A stretch of DNA of 54,810 bases. It comes from Candidatus Parcubacteria bacterium. Its GTDB lineage: Bacteria > Patescibacteriota > Minisyncoccia > Phycocordibacterales > Zambryskibacteraceae. Position numbers and translations under genes: made by a program. Positions 12,813 to 50,882 of this stretch are shown here, piece after piece. The stretch is from contig JAIFWP010000002.1 of the NCBI GenBank assembly GCA_019661785.1, positions 105,059 through 159,868 on the forward strand, in the 5' to 3' direction. Below the pieces are notes generated by a model, which was given only the letters and a program-made list of their open reading frames with translations, was not told the origin of the DNA and did no database searches. Numbering within the stretch: the first letter of the stretch is position 1; the number at the start of each line of letters is the position of its first letter.

Positions 12813-13144
12813 ATTTCCGGACCGTCGTCGCTTATCTTCTGCGGGATGAGATGGATGTGGACGTGTGGTATGTCTGTACCAACGATGCCTACTCTTACGA
12901 AATCACCTTCGTATTTATCCTTCAGCATTTTCGCTACACGTTTGACTGAGCGGAATACTTCGTCCGAAAGTTCATCCGGCATATCGATAAACCATCGGTG
13001 ATGGGTTTTAGGAATGAGAAGCGTATGTCCCGGAGCTTTGGGATGAATATCAAGAAATGCGACGGTGTGTTCATCTTCATGAATGATTTCCGAAGGAATC
13101 TCTTTGTTCGCGATTTTGCAGAATAAGCAGTCAGGATCTCTCAT
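12809..13144 (-). CDS. HIT-family (histidine triad) protein
   Basis: 111 aa. CLFCKI..., HPKAPGHTLLIPK and the histidine triad HVHIHLIP. Confidence 0.88.
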   Translation of the reverse strand: MRDPDCLFCKIANKEIPSEIIHEDEHTVAFLDIHPKAPGHTLLIPKTHHRWFIDMPDELSDEVFRSVKRVAKMLKDKYEGDFVRVGIVGTDIPHVHIHLIPQKISDDGPEI

Positions 13145-14127
13145 TAATATGATGTTTTAGCCACTAAGCGCCCTTCTCTGTCGTATAGGGAGATAATCTC
13201 GTGCGAGGTTGCCCACATCTCCCAGGGCTTAGACAAGTAGACGTACCAAGTACTGCCTTGGAAGTTATTGTCTCCGGCATGATAGTCGAGACAAGCAGGG
13301 TAGTTCATGCGGGCTTTGATGAAGGCTATGCAAGCTCCGGACAACCCAGCAGAGTCGTCTACTGTTGGTCCAAGCTTGGCATCGTCTTTAAATACAGGCT
13401 TGTGACACGAGCGCATGCCAGCCAGGTAGTCCTGACAGGCTATGTCGAGCCCTTGTACCCCAGACTCTTTAGACGGGGCCGGACAAGAGCGGGCCAAGCC
13501 TGAAGGGAAGCGGTAGCTCTCAGCGAAGTAGCCTGTGCACTTGTTCTCCTTGAAGCTCACAAGCTGGTAGGGGCTTATATTGCCTGGGCTGCCGCTCATA
13601 ACAACGGCTGTCTCTCCAGGTTTGAGCACAATATCACTTAGCGGGCTTTGCCCAGAAGCAGCTACGATATAGGCTCCTTGTGGTATCAAGGCTGAGTCTG
13701 AAGGATAGTAGACCTCGTTATTGCCGACAGCATAAGCTCGAGAGCTCTTGCCGTTCTCGAGCTTGTATCCGGTCAGGTCAACCGAGCTCCCGCCGCCGTT
13801 TTGTATAGTTATGTACTCCTCGCTAGGCTGGTATGTATAAGCGGCATTCCCTGTACCTAGGGAAAGGGAGCTTGCCACAACCGTGCTTGTAGTTTTTACG
13901 CCAGATAGCTTAGTTCCCGTTGTGGCCTTTGTGCCGCTGGCCTGCTTGGCGCCTGTGCCCGACACAGTAGGGCCTACTGCGCTCGTAGATGAGCTATTAG
14001 TGAAGGGCGAGAAGCCGAAGAGGCTCCCTCTGAAGACTCCGGGCACTACAAGTACGAAGATAACTACCGATATGGCAACGAGGATGAGGAGCCATTCGAC
14101 GAAGTTTCCTCCGGTTAATTTCTTCAT
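13144..14127 (-). CDS. Membrane-anchored secreted protein with a possible lamin-tail-domain (LTD)-like segment
   Basis: 327 aa with an N-terminal TM helix and a Ser/Thr/Gly linker. EYITIQNGGGSSVDLTGYKLENG resembles the LTD core. The C-terminal region is Cys-rich. Confidence 0.5.
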   Translation of the reverse strand: MKKLTGGNFVEWLLILVAISVVIFVLVVPGVFRGSLFGFSPFTNSSSTSAVGPTVSGTGAKQASGTKATTGTKLSGVKTTSTVVASSLSLGTGNAAYTYQPSEEYITIQNGGGSSVDLTGYKLENGKSSRAYAVGNNEVYYPSDSALIPQGAYIVAASGQSPLSDIVLKPGETAVVMSGSPGNISPYQLVSFKENKCTGYFAESYRFPSGLARSCPAPSKESGVQGLDIACQDYLAGMRSCHKPVFKDDAKLGPTVDDSAGLSGACIAFIKARMNYPACLDYHAGDNNFQGSTWYVYLSKPWEMWATSHEIISLYDREGRLVAKTSY

Positions 14128-18131: not shown

Positions 18132-18731
18132 CTATTTCTGCGCTTCTGTAAAGTTCTTCTCGCACGTTTGCCAGTTGAGGTTTGCGAGGAAGGCGTCAAC
18201 GTACTTGCCTTTGCCTGCTGCGCCGTAGTCGAGGATGTAGGTGTGCTCCCACACATCGAGCGCGAGGATGATAGGTAGGGAAGCGAAATGCCCAATATGC
18301 TGCTCCTCAGAGAAGCCGAACATGAGGTTGCCGCTCACAGCGTCGTAATACATGATGGACCAGCCTGGTCCGCGCATCATGCCGACGTTCTTAATAAATT
18401 TCATTGTAGTGTCGACTGAGCCGAACTGCTCTATCATCTTCTGCTCAAGCGCTCCGCCTGAGGTGAGGGGGGTCGGGCCGCCCTCAAGATGCTTGAAATA
18501 ATACTCGTGAAGCCTCATGCCACCGAACTCGAAGGACAAGCGACGCTGGAGCTCGGATAAGGCAATCGCGTTTTGCTCCGAGTCTGCCATGAGCTTGCCC
18601 ATGAGCTCGCAGATGCCGTTAAAGTTCTTTACATAGCCTGCGTAGAGGCCCAGATGCTCCTCTATAGACTTAGTCGAGATGCCGTTAAGCCCGCCTATAT
18701 TAAATTTCAATGGTTCGAATGTTTTTGTCAT
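18132..18731 (-). CDS. sodA: Fe/Mn superoxide dismutase
   Basis: 199 aa. The N-terminal helical hairpin block is present, and DVWEHTYILDY matches the DxWEHAYY metal-ligand motif. Confidence 0.92.
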   Translation of the reverse strand: MTKTFEPLKFNIGGLNGISTKSIEEHLGLYAGYVKNFNGICELMGKLMADSEQNAIALSELQRRLSFEFGGMRLHEYYFKHLEGGPTPLTSGGALEQKMIEQFGSVDTTMKFIKNVGMMRGPGWSIMYYDAVSGNLMFGFSEEQHIGHFASLPIILALDVWEHTYILDYGAAGKGKYVDAFLANLNWQTCEKNFTEAQK

Positions 18732-20276: not shown

Positions 20277-20894
20277 ATGGCACTCGAATTCGTCATTCAG
20301 ATACTCATCCTCCTCATGTCGGTCGTCATCCACGAGGTTTGCCACGGCCTCGCTGCTCGTTACTACGGCGACCACACAGCAGAGTATCAAGGCAGACTCA
20401 CACTGAATCCTCTTAAGCATCTCGACCCGGTCGGATCGCTCCTCTTACCGGCTCTTCTCTTCTTCACCCATAGCGGGATAGTCTTCGGCTGGGCGAAGCC
20501 AGTGCCATATAATCCATACAACCTTAAACCTGGCAGATGGCCTGAGGCCGCAGTAGCCTTGGCTGGTCCGGCATCGAACTTCGCCATTGCGGCAGTCTTC
20601 GCCGTCCTCTTGCGCCTAGGCGTCTCGCATGACTACTCGCCGGCCTTCCTCCACATCACTGCGGCTATAGTACTAGTGAACCTGCTCCTCATGGTCTTCA
20701 ACCTCATGCCCGTGCCTCCGCTCGACGGCTCAAGACTCCTCTTCGCTGTCTTCCCTGAGAGGCTATACAGGTACCGCAACTTCTTCGAGCGATACGGGTT
20801 CGTACTTGTCATCATCTTTATCTTCTTCCTATGGCAGTTCGTCGAGCCCTTGGTAGGCACCCTTTTCCATATCTTGACCGGACAGCCGCAATGA
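20277..20894 (+). CDS. Site-2 protease (peptidase M50) family membrane metalloprotease
   Basis: 205 aa. HEVCH (HExxH) lies in the first TM segment, [11 protein letters not shown] is the LDG motif, and the protein is polytopic. Confidence 0.82.
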
Positions 20895-36246: not shown

Positions 36247-36780
36247 ATGGAAAACTTAAAGACTAAAACCAAGAGCTTGAAGGGATACACGAACCCGATG
36301 CAGCAGCCAAAGATTGTTAAGGTCGTGGTCTCTGTAGGCGTAGGCTCTCTCAAGGATAAGAACAAGATTAAGGTTATCGAAGACCGACTTTTGAAGATAA
36401 CTGGACAGAAGGCCGCACCAAGAGGCGCGAAGATAGCTATCGCTAACTTCAAGAGCCGCCAGGGTGATGTCGTAGGCTACCAGGTCACTCTACGAGGGGC
36501 ACGCATGCAGGACTTCCTCGAGCGCCTCATACACATCTCTCTCCCTCGTACCAAGGACTTCCGAGGCATATCCAAAAACTCCGCTGACGAGATGGGCAAC
36601 TACACCTTGGGCATTAAGGAGCACACCATCTTCCCTGAGACTGCCGACGAGGAGTTGAAGGATGTCTTCGGCCTCGCCATCACCGTAGTCACTACCGCTA
36701 AGAGCCGCAAGGAGGTACAGGACTTCCTCGAGCATCTCGGCTTCCCATTCAAAAAGGTCGAAGAGCCAAAGAAGAGATAG
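36247..36780 (+). CDS. rplE: 50S ribosomal protein L5
   Basis: 177 aa. The L5 blocks PKIVKVVVSVGVG, FKSRQGDVVGYQVTLRG and RDFRGIS are present. Confidence 0.96.
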   Translation: MENLKTKTKSLKGYTNPMQQPKIVKVVVSVGVGSLKDKNKIKVIEDRLLKITGQKAAPRGAKIAIANFKSRQGDVVGYQVTLRGARMQDFLERLIHISLPRTKDFRGISKNSADEMGNYTLGIKEHTIFPETADEELKDVFGLAITVVTTAKSRKEVQDFLEHLGFPFKKVEEPKKR

Positions 36781-36802
36781 ATAAATAATCAATGAATACA
36801 CG

Positions 36803-36828
36803 AAGCCCCGGCGATTGCCGGGGCTTTT
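36803..36828. terminator. Bidirectional hairpin AAGCCCCGGCGATTGCCGGGGCTTTT between rplE and the antisense cassette
   Basis: It has a perfect stem, a T-tract on the plus strand and TTCGTGTATT on the minus strand. Confidence 0.7.
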
Positions 36829-36833
36829 GCTAT

Positions 36834-37151
36834 CTACAGTCGGACTCGGGAGCCGAAAGGAACATTGCCGAAGACTCCCATGAGGTCTTCTGCTGTGATT
36901 TGCTCGGCGCGGCGTGCGCCGATAACCATGAGCTGGAGGCGTGCCTGCGTCAGCCGCATTCGTCGGATGAAGTGGATGGATTCCTTCTTCGACCATCCCG
37001 GATGCTCGAGCATGAAGGCGGAAACCTCCTCCTTCTTTGGCTTGTCGCGAAGCCACTGCTTGGCTTCCTTCGCAGAGCAGTTGCGTAGGTCCATCGCTCC
37101 TTCGACGAGTCGTGGGTCGAGGCGGAAGCCTCCAAAATTGAGTTTCCACAT
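36834..37151 (-). CDS. Hypothetical protein, 105 aa (antisense cassette inside the spc operon)
   Basis: SD GGAGGTGG lies upstream. The ATG shares one nucleotide with the upstream stop (TGATG). It contains EEVSAFMLEHPGWSKKESIHF, similar to a motif in the upstream ORF. Confidence 0.55.
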   Translation of the reverse strand: MWKLNFGGFRLDPRLVEGAMDLRNCSAKEAKQWLRDKPKKEEVSAFMLEHPGWSKKESIHFIRRMRLTQARLQLMVIGARRAEQITAEDLMGVFGNVPFGSRVRL

Positions 37152-37300
37152 CAGCCACCTCCAACAATTTCGAGAGCAAGATCAACCGCGAACTTGGTTC
37201 TGAAGTAGACCGCGATTTGGTGGTCGTCCCAGTCGGGGTGCTCTTCCTTCAGCTTGGCAACTTCGGCTTCGGTGGGCTTCAGGGACTTTTTGTCCGCCAT
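37151..37300 (-). CDS. Hypothetical micro-protein, 49 aa (MADKKSLKPTEAEVAKLKEEHPDWDDHQIAVYF...)
   Basis: I chose the internal ATG at 37300 of ORF 37151-37378, with SD GGAG 6 nt upstream. It is translationally coupled to the downstream ORF. Confidence 0.45.
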   Translation of the reverse strand: MADKKSLKPTEAEVAKLKEEHPDWDDHQIAVYFRTKFAVDLALEIVGGG

Positions 37301-37332
37301 TTTGGCTCCAGAAAGGGGTCTTGGATAATTAT

Positions 37333-37369
37333 GCTCCAAACGAAACCCCGCGCAAGCGCGCGGGGCTTT
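37333..37369 (-). terminator. Rho-independent terminator of the 37574 ORF
   Basis: On the minus strand, AAAGCCCCGCGCGCTTGCGCGGGGTTT is followed by CGTTTGG. Confidence 0.65.
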
Positions 37370-37574
37370 ATCTGGCACTGGTGGCTCGTTGGAGTCGCCG
37401 GGCCAACTCGATGGTCTGAGGTATGGATGGTACCCCAGTAGGGTATTGGTCGACCACTGCGCGTCCGTCGTCTATCATTTCGAGAGCTTCGACCAAGAAG
37501 TCTCTCGGCACAGTTTCCATCTTCCTCTTAGCCATGAGGCCCTCGACTAAGTGCACAAAAGTCATTGCGGTCAT
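37368..37574 (-). CDS. Hypothetical protein, 68 aa (antisense cassette inside the spc operon)
   Basis: I chose the internal ATG at 37574 of ORF 37368-37631, with SD GAGGAGG 11 nt upstream. The ORF has its own terminator. Confidence 0.45.
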   Translation of the reverse strand: MTAMTFVHLVEGLMAKRKMETVPRDFLVEALEMIDDGRAVVDQYPTGVPSIPQTIELARRLQRATSAR

Positions 37575-37702
37575 TTGGCACCTTGCCTCCTCTGGGGTCT
37601 TTTGGGGTGGGGTCTTGAAGTAAGCTAGCACATATGTTAGTCTGGTGCCACGGCTTTACCGCCTTTTTTGTCTCTATTTAAGGCGTTTAGCAAGCTCACA
37701 TA

Positions 37703-37888
37703 ATGGCCAAAACCTCAGTTATCGCAAGAAGCAAGAAGAAGCCCAAGTTCTCAACTCGGGCTACTAATCGCTGCTTCCGCTGTGGCCGCAAGCGCGGCTT
37801 CATGCGAGACTTCGGTCTCTGCCGTATCTGCTTCCGCGAGCTTGCTAACGAGGGCAAGATCCCAGGCATTAAGAAGTCTTCCTGGTAA
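37703..37888 (+). CDS. rpsN: 30S ribosomal protein S14 type Z (zinc-binding)
   Basis: 61 aa. The sequence [24 protein letters not shown] contains the CxxC...CxxC zinc motif. Confidence 0.95.
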
Positions 37889-41427: not shown

Positions 41428-42027
41428 ATGCTCCATACAGTAATCTTTATTGGCCGCTCGGGTTGCGGCAAGGGTACGCAGGCCGACCTCTTGAAGGAGC
41501 GCATCACGCGCCTCGACCCCGAGAAGCGCAAGATACTCTATGTCGAGACGGGAGACAGATTCCGCAAGTTCATCCGAGGCAAGACCTACTCCTCAAAGCT
41601 CTCTGAGAAGATATATGAAGAGGACGCCAGGCAGCCCGACTTCCTCGCTGGGCTTATGTGGGGTAGTATGCTCCTCGAGGAGTTAGGAGAGGACATGCAC
41701 ATAGTCTTCGACGGTGTAGCCCGCTCAGAGCCCGAGGCCAAGCTCCTCACTACGGCCTTAGAGTTCTACAAGCGCGAGAGGCCAACGATAATACACATAG
41801 AGGTGAGCCGCAGGTGGAGCGAAGACAAACTCTTGAAGCGCGGACGCTCTGACGATGTGAATATATCTAAGATAGACAAGCGCCTGGACTGGTTCGACAA
41901 GGACGTAGTGCCAGCGCTCGACTACCTGCGCGCCAATCCTATGTACAGAGTGCTGGATGTGAATGGCGAGCAGACCATCGACGAAGTGCACCGAGAGATA
42001 ATATCCAAATACGACTATGGCAATTAA
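41428..42027 (+). CDS. adk: Adenylate kinase-family nucleoside monophosphate kinase (copy 1)
   Basis: 199 aa. It has P-loop IFIGRSGCGKGTQ, FDGVARSEPEAK, and a short lid with RGRSDD. Confidence 0.85.
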   Translation: MLHTVIFIGRSGCGKGTQADLLKERITRLDPEKRKILYVETGDRFRKFIRGKTYSSKLSEKIYEEDARQPDFLAGLMWGSMLLEELGEDMHIVFDGVARSEPEAKLLTTALEFYKRERPTIIHIEVSRRWSEDKLLKRGRSDDVNISKIDKRLDWFDKDVVPALDYLRANPMYRVLDVNGEQTIDEVHREIISKYDYGN

Positions 42028-44509: not shown

Positions 44510-44908
44510 ATGAGCCGACGCCTGCTAATACTGACCTTCATCTCTGTCATCGTCGTTGGCGCCTTGCACAGGATAGGCAGCGCGTTCTATCTATATTGGG
44601 ATGTAGTTTGGTTCGATGGACTGGTGCACTATGTGGGAGCTCTCTCTGTCGGCTTCCTGTTCCTCTGGGTGTGGTACGTTTCGGGCCTCTTTGGCCGCTC
44701 GACTCCTTCGCGCAAAGAGGTTTTCATATCATCACTCATAGCCGTCATGGCTGTGGCCTTGGGGTGGGAGTTCTTTGAGTATTCATATGGCATTGCTGTG
44801 TCGAACGCTAACAACTATGTTCTCGATACTTTCCACGATGTCGTCTTCGACTTTCTCGGCGCTCTCACAGTAGGCCTTGTCGGCAGGGTTAGGAGCTTCT
44901 ATGAGTAA
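44510..44908 (+). CDS. Polytopic membrane protein, hypothetical
   Basis: 132 aa with four hydrophobic segments. I recognise no family. Confidence 0.6.
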   Translation: MSRRLLILTFISVIVVGALHRIGSAFYLYWDVVWFDGLVHYVGALSVGFLFLWVWYVSGLFGRSTPSRKEVFISSLIAVMAVALGWEFFEYSYGIAVSNANNYVLDTFHDVVFDFLGALTVGLVGRVRSFYE

Positions 44909-50123: not shown

Positions 50124-50179
50124 ATAAGCTGTCTATGTATAGACGGTTTTCCGTTAAATTCTCTACAATACGAAACTGT

Positions 50180-50428
50180 CTACTTGTAATTCACGAAGTC
50201 GGAGAGCTTCCGCACTTTTTCCTCAAGTTCTTCTATCTTCTTATCATCTTCCTCGTGGTGTTTGAAGAATCTTATGAGTCTTGGCCATATGAGTACGCCG
50301 ATGATGAGGTCGAAGATGACTATGAGGAAGACTTCAAACTCCCAGTGGGGGAGGTTAGTGAGCAGGGTCCAGAATGTTTCCTGTTCGGGCATGTATATCC
50401 AGACTACTCTCGTTTTCATAAAATGCAA
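50180..50428 (-). CDS. Small membrane protein, hypothetical
   Basis: 82 aa, or 79 aa from the ATG at 50419. It has one TM helix (VFLIVIFDLIIGVLIW) and a charged coiled C-terminus. Confidence 0.5.
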   Translation of the reverse strand: MHFMKTRVVWIYMPEQETFWTLLTNLPHWEFEVFLIVIFDLIIGVLIWPRLIRFFKHHEEDDKKIEELEEKVRKLSDFVNYK

Positions 50429-50443
50429 AACCGCCCCAAGGTT

Positions 50444-50752
50444 TCAAGCCTTAGGGCGGATGCGTTGCGGGAAACTCAGAAGGATGCTCATCATGGTGTC
50501 ATCGAGCGCGTCTTCAGGTGTACCTACTTGTTTCAGGTACTGCCTCAGTCTCGCCTTGGTCATGTTGATATTCGGGAAGAGCAGGTCCCACATAAAGAAG
50601 ATTGCTTCGCCGGAACGCTCCTTGAAAGCCTCCTCCTTTCTTTCGTCCTTGGTTATCTCTGCTTTCTCTCTGCTTCCTTCGACAACCCCAAGGACTCGGA
50701 TACTTCTGCTGTTAGGAATCGTACCAAGAATGGCCCAAATCTCTTCACGCAT
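50444..50752 (-). CDS. Hypothetical protein, 102 aa
   Basis: SD GGAG lies 6 nt upstream of the ATG. The hairpin terminator CCGCCCTAAGG...CCTTGGGGCGG plus TTTTGCATTTT overlaps the next gene's start. Confidence 0.5.
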   Translation of the reverse strand: MREEIWAILGTIPNSRSIRVLGVVEGSREKAEITKDERKEEAFKERSGEAIFFMWDLLFPNINMTKARLRQYLKQVGTPEDALDDTMMSILLSFPQRIRPKA

Positions 50753-50882
50753 ATGAATCTCCGTATTTAGCCTTTTTGTACCTTACACTTTATTATATGA
50801 AAAATCAAAAGAGGTGAAGGGATTGGTGCCCTCCGCCAGACAAAAAAGAAAAACCGACATAAAGCCGGCTTTCTTTTTGTTG

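Follow-up and report, generated by a model that had tools for sequence, protein, structure and literature searches.

Few gene arrangements in prokaryotes are as conserved as the S10-spc-alpha ribosomal protein gene cluster, on which phylogenies of the candidate phyla radiation (CPR) are based. A classical spc operon is transcribed as one unit, in which rpsN directly follows rplE and neither a terminator nor a promoter separates the two. In the stretch of DNA analyzed here (54,810 nucleotides [nt] of Candidatus Parcubacteria bacterium contig JAIFWP010000002.1; hereafter, the window), the two genes lie 922 nt apart, separated by a predicted terminator, a candidate promoter, and a cassette of three minus-strand open reading frames (ORFs) of 105, 49, and 68 amino acids (aa). 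The organism belongs to the Paceibacteria (Patescibacteria/CPR), a group of small soil bacteria. The cassette is best read as lineage-restricted accessory cargo in a naturally permissive spacer between two transcription units, and we give this reading a probability of about 0.6.

The closest described cases come from ribosomal clusters of other phyla. According to the excerpts of PMC8046335 that deal with them, a few unrelated genes are lodged at one point of the cluster, and the flanks are often fully disconnected in the descendants; most of the events excerpted lie between classical operons (rpoBC-str and str-S10), and one lies within the rpoBC operon (rplL-rsmC). The locus studied here resembles those insertions in flank disconnection, with 15 related loci in which rpsN is absent from at least 2 kb of sequence after rplE. 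Unlike the events in those excerpts, the break considered here falls inside the spc operon, at rplE/rpsN, appears clade-wide, and has a putative boundary marked by a terminator and a conserved promoter and leader. A second comparison is offered by orphan small-protein genes at variable genomic spots, which, like the genes here, are short, fast-evolving, restricted to a narrow clade, and situated between core genes; unlike in those cases, the interval here lies within the ribosomal protein supercluster, normally among the least permissive places in a genome. The literature searched yielded no report linking the spc operon to CPR or describing the rplE/rpsN junction in Patescibacteria. The present data suggest two new elements, namely, a four-member orphan protein family accompanied by two singletons and a clade-wide break of the spc operon at rplE/rpsN with variable cargo.

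Organization of the rplE-rpsN spacer

Apart from the interruption, the gene order of the ribosomal cluster in the window is intact. The features of the spacer and its flanks, in window coordinates, are as follows.

36247-36780, plus strand: rplE (uL5), last gene of the upstream ribosomal transcription unit, 80% identical to Zambryskibacteria and other Paceibacteria metagenome-assembled genomes
36803-36828, both strands: putative bidirectional intrinsic terminator, stem AAGCCCCGGC/GCCGGGGCTT, loop GATT, then TTTT on the plus strand
36834-37151, minus strand: 105-aa gene, founding member of a four-member orphan family, predicted all-alpha
37155-37162, minus strand: Shine-Dalgarno (SD) site GGAGGTGG of the 105-aa gene, 3 nt before the ATG (GGAGG core, 6 nt), within the 3' end of the 49-aa ORF
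37151-37300, minus strand: 49-aa ORF (49 aa from ATG, 75 aa from an upstream GTG), found in this genome only
37306-37309, minus strand: SD site GGAG of the 49-aa ORF, 5 nt before the ATG
37328-37355, minus strand: candidate promoter of the 49/105-aa unit, -35 TTGCGC (37350-37355, inside the internal hairpin), 16-nt spacer, -10 CATAAT (37328-37333)
37336-37375, minus strand: internal hairpin, core CCCCGCGC-GCTT-GCGCGGGG at 37346-37365, then UUUCGUUU
37368-37574, minus strand: 68-aa ORF (68 aa from ATG, 87 aa from GTG), singleton of uncertain coding status
37586-37592, minus strand: SD-like GAGGAGG of the 68-aa ORF, 11 nt upstream of the ATG, a rather long spacing
37615-37643, plus strand: candidate rpsN promoter, TTGAAG-N17-TAGTCT, 88 nt upstream of rpsN
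37644-37702, plus strand: rpsN 5' leader with a degenerate copy of the clade hairpin (GGC 37652-37654/GCC 37661-37663) and a T-run (37664-37669)
37703-37888, plus strand: rpsN (uS14, 61-aa zinc type), first gene of the downstream ribosomal unit, 93% identical to relatives

The initial annotation described the 922-nt gap and its three minus-strand ORFs, and ORF positions, shuffles, codon usage, and AT skew all confirm this description. ATG-initiated ORFs cover 674 of the 922 nt on one strand, an extent matched by 25 of 2,000 shuffles. Under a codon usage model trained on 46 long ORFs of the window, the 105-, 49-, and 68-aa ORFs score 0.234, 0.356, and 0.187 bits per codon, respectively, compared with 0.35 ± 0.14 for window genes; among 71 small out-of-frame ORFs used as a control, 3, 2, and 6 reach these respective scores. 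The AT skew changes sign across the gap, which is the pattern expected for minus-strand coding. The G+C content of the gap is 0.54 to 0.57, against 0.45 to 0.61 in the flanks, and the codon scores fall within the range of host genes. The SD sites reported ahead of the three ORFs (GAGGAGG, GGAG, and GGAGGTGG) are all present in the sequence, as is the TGATG stop/start overlap at 37149-37153 on which the coupling of the 49- and 105-aa ORFs had been proposed. The reported internal terminator was likewise recovered, as a minus-strand fold at 37336-37375 (-29.3 kcal/mol, z = -5.1) followed by UUUCGUUU.

The rplE-rpsN junction in related Paceibacteria

Relatives were represented by 80 loci from species-representative genomes and 80 from metagenomes, in each of which rplE and rpsN were located. 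Among the 108 junctions closed on both sides, the median rplE-rpsN distance is 506 nt, with a range of 21 to 3,630 nt; gaps of at most 60 nt occur in 7 junctions and gaps above 2 kb in 12, and the 15 disconnected loci come in addition to these. The expectation that the junction is normally a few nt long is thus true of bacteria in general and fails for this clade. Comparison of relatives had been proposed as a check of whether the junction is empty there, and the outcome is mixed: near-empty junctions of 21 to 89 nt do exist in some related genomes, but most are long and variously filled. In L003, L005, L087, and L092, whose rplE genes are 76 to 79% identical, the gaps measure 21 to 23 nt, and neither a terminator nor a promoter is present in them; the clade thus includes both continuous and split versions of the operon.

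The cargo of the related spacers is heterogeneous and consists of unrelated genes on either strand, including family-4 glycosyltransferases, sigma-70 factors, PaaX/Cas2-like proteins, peptide deformylase, and many ORFs without a family. Individual cases of mobile or selfish-type cargo include a toxin-antitoxin (TA)-like pair with a HigB/RelE-like toxin (L008 4508-5066 and L098 4480-4996; E = 7e-5, below the Pfam cutoff), an IS200-like Y1 transposase (L103 4052-5036; 58 bits), and PaaX/Cas2-like proteins at L007 4608-5177 and L136 469-675.

Regulatory signals on both sides of the spacer recur across the clade. A strict rule required a terminator to lie no more than 90 nt past the rplE stop codon and to have a stem of at least 6 bp with at least 4 G-C pairs, followed by 8 nt of which at least 5 are T. 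By this rule, an intrinsic terminator follows rplE at 46 of 145 distinct related loci, compared with 0.8 expected from shuffles, and the hairpin after rplE in the window satisfies the same rule. The 36803-36826 hairpin has a folding energy of -22.7 kcal/mol whichever strand is read (z = -5.1 and -4.4 versus shuffles), and UUUU follows it on the plus strand. It is a putative terminator closing both rplE on the plus strand and the convergent 49/105-aa unit on the minus strand. On the other side, a TTGnnn-N16-18-TAnnnT promoter pattern precedes rpsN at 45 of 85 related loci, compared with 9 in shuffles; these promoters lie mostly 62 to 65 nt before the ATG (modal), and TTGAAT/TTGACA-N17-TAAGCT/TAGTAT is typical. 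The terminator after rplE, the conserved rpsN promoter and leader, and the variable gap contents together lead us to regard the rplE/rpsN junction, on sequence evidence, as a cargo-tolerant border at which, in a large share of the genomes of this clade, one transcription unit ends and another begins.

The rpsN leader itself carries a hairpin of at least 4 bp with a T-rich tail in 39 of 82 distinct relatives, compared with 3.9 expected. The hairpins were counted sequence by sequence, since MAFFT with RNAalifold gave no pairs, a result that is due to stems and loops of differing length being out of register. They comprise 30 stem variants of 4 to 8 bp, in which the stem sequence varies and pairing is kept, and the T-rich tract lies mostly 11 to 15 nt before the ATG. 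In relatives bearing the hairpin, the rpsN ATG has no visible SD sequence. The leader element could be a 5' stabilizer, an attenuator, or a ribosomal protein binding site. The copy in the window is degenerate (3 bp) in a leader about 25 nt longer, and it shows no significant fold (z = -0.96). No Rfam family was found in the gap or in the rpsN leader, where subthreshold matches are confined to terminator-like parts of unrelated models. The promoter and leader were seen in the window (37615-37702), L002, L006 to L008, L082, L085, L086, L088, L089, L091, L098, L104, L110, and L112, among others.

These elements suggest how the locus may be organized. The ribosomal cluster of Paceibacteria would often be cut into two transcription units at rplE/rpsN, with rplE ending in an intrinsic terminator, rpsN having its own promoter and short leader, and the spacer between them tolerating genome-specific cargo. 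In the window, a bicistronic 49/105-aa unit convergent with rplE would be translated in a coupled fashion and end at the shared bidirectional terminator, and a possible monocistronic 68-aa ORF, divergent from rpsN, would end at the internal hairpin. The 105-aa family may have been inherited vertically in the spacer within a narrow soil clade. The 105-aa protein might bind another macromolecule as an adaptor or regulator, which we put forward with low confidence and as a guess, and the 49-aa product, which copies its central helices, could then be a partner or competitor of it. We infer the transcription and translation of the cassette, and any biochemical role, from these signals. The claim in the initial annotation that cassette transcription would run head-on into the ribosomal operon is overstated, given that the terminator of rplE is shared with the 49/105-aa unit and that rpsN has its own predicted promoter; the layout appears to be an ordinary convergent/divergent arrangement.

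The 105-aa gene and its family

The 105-aa gene is the best supported of the three. A word-seeded phmmer search over 5.8 billion proteins returned a single close homolog, P0002, which is 71% identical and encoded on a 783-nt farmland contig, L001, with a GTG start and GAGGAG 6 nt before it. This homolog occupies the same spacer, since the contig runs from the final codons of rplE at one end to the rpsN leader and promoter at the other. Between the two genes, dN/dS ranges from 0.11 (NG86) to 0.18 (LWL85), with saturated dS values of 1.5 to 2.1, and the differences at the three codon positions number 22, 21, and 57 (57 of 100 at the third). The low dN/dS and the third-position excess argue for purifying selection on the reading frame, and we regard the 105-aa ORF on these grounds as a real protein-coding gene. 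The lack of reading frame conservation, named beforehand as an outcome that would speak against the cassette, was thus not what the L001 homolog showed.

A full HMMER profile scan of 1.84 billion representatives gave two hits, of which the new one, P0005 (98 aa, E = 1.5e-7), is encoded antisense between uL5 and uS14 on contig L082. The fourth member (86 aa) was located in L110, where the gap measures 336 nt and the gene is again antisense. It is preceded by a predicted promoter of canonical sequence (TTGACA-N17-ATAATT) and an AGGAGG site, and its terminator is also that of rplE; the score of its product against each of the other three was reached by 0 of 5,000 shuffles. A local profile and jackhmmer search of 8,946 ORFs from 162 related loci recovered just these four members, and degenerate-pattern scans of contigs from metagenomes, GTDB genomes, and IMG/VR confirmed no further ones. 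All four genes are antisense in the rplE-rpsN spacer, and three of them have no upstream partner gene. They share the N-terminal motif (L/I)(V/I)(E/D)GAMxLxx(C/L)SxxEAxx(W/F)L, and their identity of 28 to 71%, where rplE is 79 to 85% identical, marks the family as fast-evolving. A neighbor-joining tree of rplE pairs the window with L082 as its sister and places L110 within the subclade that holds both. With no homolog found beyond this narrow lineage and a frame that appears to be under selection, the family is classed as a taxonomically restricted orphan. The occurrence of four members at one site would be sufficiently explained by vertical inheritance with turnover, because the genomes are close relatives and the window, L082, and L110 group in the rplE tree.

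That no family is recognizable in the cassette, as the initial annotation had stated, agrees with the searches: Pfam, NCBIfam, PADLOC, and PHROGs returned nothing above threshold for the three products, their homologs, or the neighboring small ORFs, and the best match of a PDB sequence profile search had an E value of 0.13. Two AlphaFold2 (AF2) models of the 105-aa protein gave mean predicted local distance difference test (pLDDT) scores of 59.9 and 75.9; the latter, built with three sequences, is a five-helix model with block means of 82 to 95 over residues 11 to 80. Foldseek searches of the models against PDB (twice) and BFVD gave best E values of 0.47 to 2.7 with template modeling (TM) scores below 0.4, and the PDB E values exceeded 0.9. 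As modeled, the protein is soluble and all-helical, with no recognizable catalytic, toxin, or DNA-binding domain. Nucleic acid binding cannot be argued from charge because, by manual residue count, the net charge is not conserved in the family.

An origin of the central motif of the 105-aa protein from the inverted 3' end of rplE was considered and rejected (EVQDFLEHLGF versus EVSAFMLEHPGW; Smith-Waterman score, 28; shuffle P = 0.35), with the other family members giving no better result. Two short inverted repeats, one of 10 nt with 100% identity and one of 16 nt with 88%, do link window positions 36727-36774, in the 3' end of rplE, with 37001-37047, in the central part of the 105-aa gene, and yield the superficially alike peptide EVxxFLEHxG, which is probably a chance similarity. 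At L082, an 81-aa ORF without a family lies at 819-1064 on the ribosomal gene strand, between the rplE terminator and the antisense family gene; it is convergent with the family gene, and a bidirectional terminator at L082 796-820 is common to both.

The 49-aa and 68-aa ORFs

In Smith-Waterman alignment, the 49-aa protein matches residues 37 to 75 of the 105-aa protein with a score of 49, which is reached by 0 of 5,000 shuffles, and it also matches the L001 homolog of the 105-aa protein (P = 0.004). On the strength of the former score, the 49-aa product is evidently a truncated paralog of the 105-aa protein. The initial annotation had proposed a duplicated segment with a shared EHPxW motif; the duplication holds, whereas the W of EHPxW is not conserved in the homologs. 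In the 5.8 billion proteins, the 49-aa ORF matches only itself, and no gene like it lies upstream of the family gene at L001, L082, or L110. The candidate promoter of the 49/105-aa unit was missed by the consensus promoter scan because its -35 element matches at only 3 of 6 positions; L001 has the same promoter layout (TTGCGC-N16-TATAGT).

The internal hairpin is a predicted terminator of the 68-aa ORF, and its 3' arm would carry the -35 element of the next unit. Its sequence is identical in L001 at 24 of 24 nt despite unrelated neighboring ORFs. The 20-nt hairpin was also considered as a repeated element, which was rejected: exact copies in GTDB genomes occur in unrelated phyla, with no ribosomal or family genes nearby, and the 20-nt hairpin is a generic GC palindrome.

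The 68-aa ORF, too, matches only itself in the 5.8 billion proteins. In L001, the slot corresponding to window positions 37368-37574 holds an unrelated 58-aa ORF (L001 148-324) with a perfect AGGAGG-N6-ATG and a good promoter. Homology of the 68-aa ORF with this ORF or with the 81-aa ORF of L082 was rejected at the protein level (P = 0.37 and 0.11, respectively), and so was nucleotide similarity of the ORF to the L001 slot (P = 0.23), the ORF bodies being unalignable. Around these unrelated bodies, the flanking rpsN promoter, leader, and hairpin are conserved between L001 and the window. Content between fixed regulatory elements would, on this comparison, have been either replaced or subject to extremely fast divergence.

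Alternative explanations

The likeliest alternative concerns the smaller ORFs: the 68-aa ORF, and with less likelihood the 49-aa ORF, may not be a gene at all and may instead be part of a noncoding spacer, a 5' untranslated region, or a small-RNA region that is open by chance. We consider this possible, though well short of an even chance. Both ORFs are singletons, and the coding support of the 68-aa ORF is weak, at 0.187 per codon compared with 0.12 to 0.13 for overlapping plus-strand ORFs; in addition, the promoter scan found no canonical promoter for it, the distance from its SD-like site to the ATG is long, and its counterpart slot in L001 cannot be aligned. However, AT skew and codon usage favor the minus frame, a terminator directly follows the 68-aa stop codon, and the L001 slot also holds an ORF with AGGAGG-N6-ATG and a good promoter. 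As for the 49-aa ORF, its codon score is the highest of the three, and its paralogy to the proven 105-aa gene is significant. The weak coding support and the missing promoter of the 68-aa ORF count against reading the cassette as accessory cargo, and further points do so as well. The -35 element of the 49/105-aa candidate promoter is poor, and the hairpin described in the initial annotation as bidirectional does fold on both strands but has a weak U-tract beyond it on the minus strand (UUCGUGUAUU). A pLDDT of 75.9 was obtained in only one of five AF2 models, the others scoring 54 to 62. The rplE tree rests on one protein and has no bootstrap values, and the presence in its subclade of genomes with different cargo makes it necessary to assume loss or replacement.

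A role tied to the neighboring genes would explain the position of the 105-aa gene differently. The protein could regulate the divergent rpsN promoter or the leader, or it could associate with the ribosome, and that role would have kept its gene in the spacer. All four members keep the spacer and the orientation despite divergence to 28 to 37% identity, and in L110 and L082 the family gene is divergent from rpsN, with promoter regions under 100 nt apart; such divergent pairing of a regulator with its target is frequent in bacteria. Nevertheless, the four genomes are close relatives (rplE 79 to 85% identical where measurable), so vertical inheritance alone explains the shared site; sister genomes lack the family gene and have tight or otherwise filled junctions, no DNA- or RNA-binding domain or fold was detected in the family, and in the window and L001 another ORF and a terminator intervene between the family gene and rpsN. 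We regard such a role as unlikely. A bolder and similarly doubtful proposal is that the spacer acts in Paceibacteria as a fixed landing pad, delimited by a terminator and a promoter within the ribosomal supercluster, for the repeated capture or de novo birth of small genes, perhaps fed by divergent transcription from the strong rpsN promoter; the window would then show three stages, namely, a singleton (68 aa), a truncated duplicate (49 aa), and an established, selected, and fast-evolving family (105 aa) that is kept because it acts on the neighboring ribosomal unit.

The initial annotation likened the layout to TA systems or phage morons, and neither likeness withstood the comparison. A type II TA-like pair, in which a small upstream antitoxin gene (49 aa) is coupled to a downstream toxin gene (105 aa), would account for the TGATG overlap, the small upstream gene, and the promoter and terminator in common, since type II TA operons likewise pair two small genes whose translation is coupled and which have a promoter and a terminator of their own, the latter two being predictions here. 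A TA-like pair with a HigB/RelE-like toxin sits in the same spacer of L008 and L098, and the 75-aa reading of the 49-aa ORF matches the Rv0078B antitoxin family below threshold (13.6 bits, where the cutoff is 27.1; E = 0.068). Type II TA systems are defined by a known toxin family or fold (RelE/ParE, MazF, VapC, HipA, and Doc, among others), by an unrelated DNA-binding antitoxin (ribbon-helix-helix, helix-turn-helix, AbrB, or Phd), and by conserved pairing, none of which was found in the cassette. The PADLOC result is empty, the Pfam, NCBIfam, and PHROGs searches put no toxin or antitoxin family above threshold, and Foldseek gave no toxin fold. Unlike a TA pair, the two products are mutual paralogs, the 49-aa product being a partial copy of the 105-aa protein and not a distinct DNA-binding antitoxin, and the partner is absent at the three other loci, where the family members stand alone. 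We therefore hold a TA function to be very improbable.

Less probable still is a recent foreign insertion in the form of a phage moron, a miniature mobile element, or an island fragment. Phage morons resemble the cassette as small autonomous units that have their own translation signals and terminator and run against the surrounding gene direction, and each unit here does have its own SD site and predicted terminator. Mobile genes enter this spacer elsewhere (the Y1 transposase of L103), and close relatives have empty junctions. Against a foreign origin, no relative was found in IMG/VR, in GenBank phages (tblastn), or in BFVD, no terminal inverted repeats or target site duplications flank the cassette, and no recombinase ORF lies in the gap. 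Morons differ from this cassette, which has no prophage context, no viral homolog, and no compositional difference from the host, its G+C content lying within the range of the flanks and its codon usage being host-like. Moreover, the 105-aa gene is not recent, because three related genomes have it at this site and its synonymous divergence is saturated.

Significance and additional observations

The present results suggest that a large class of CPR bacteria often breaks the ribosomal cluster at one fixed point, rplE/rpsN. Genes found at this point should accordingly not be taken for assembly errors by annotators or by binning and synteny tools. The spacer is a natural site for studying the origin of accessory and orphan small genes beside essential, highly expressed operons, and experiments can now be directed at the small-protein family of four members and at the candidate rpsN leader element. 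No evidence was found in the present searches for the cassette as a defense system, a TA pair, or a viral module.

In the window as a whole, the use of SD sequences is mixed, with a strong core at 15 of 56 ORFs even when alternative starts are allowed. At several genes without an SD sequence, a TATAAT-like hexamer ends 3 to 10 nt before the ATG, which suggests leaderless mRNAs; these candidates are located at 13144-14127 and 18132-18731 on the minus strand and at 20277-20894, 41428-42027, 44510-44908, and 50135-50770 on the plus strand.

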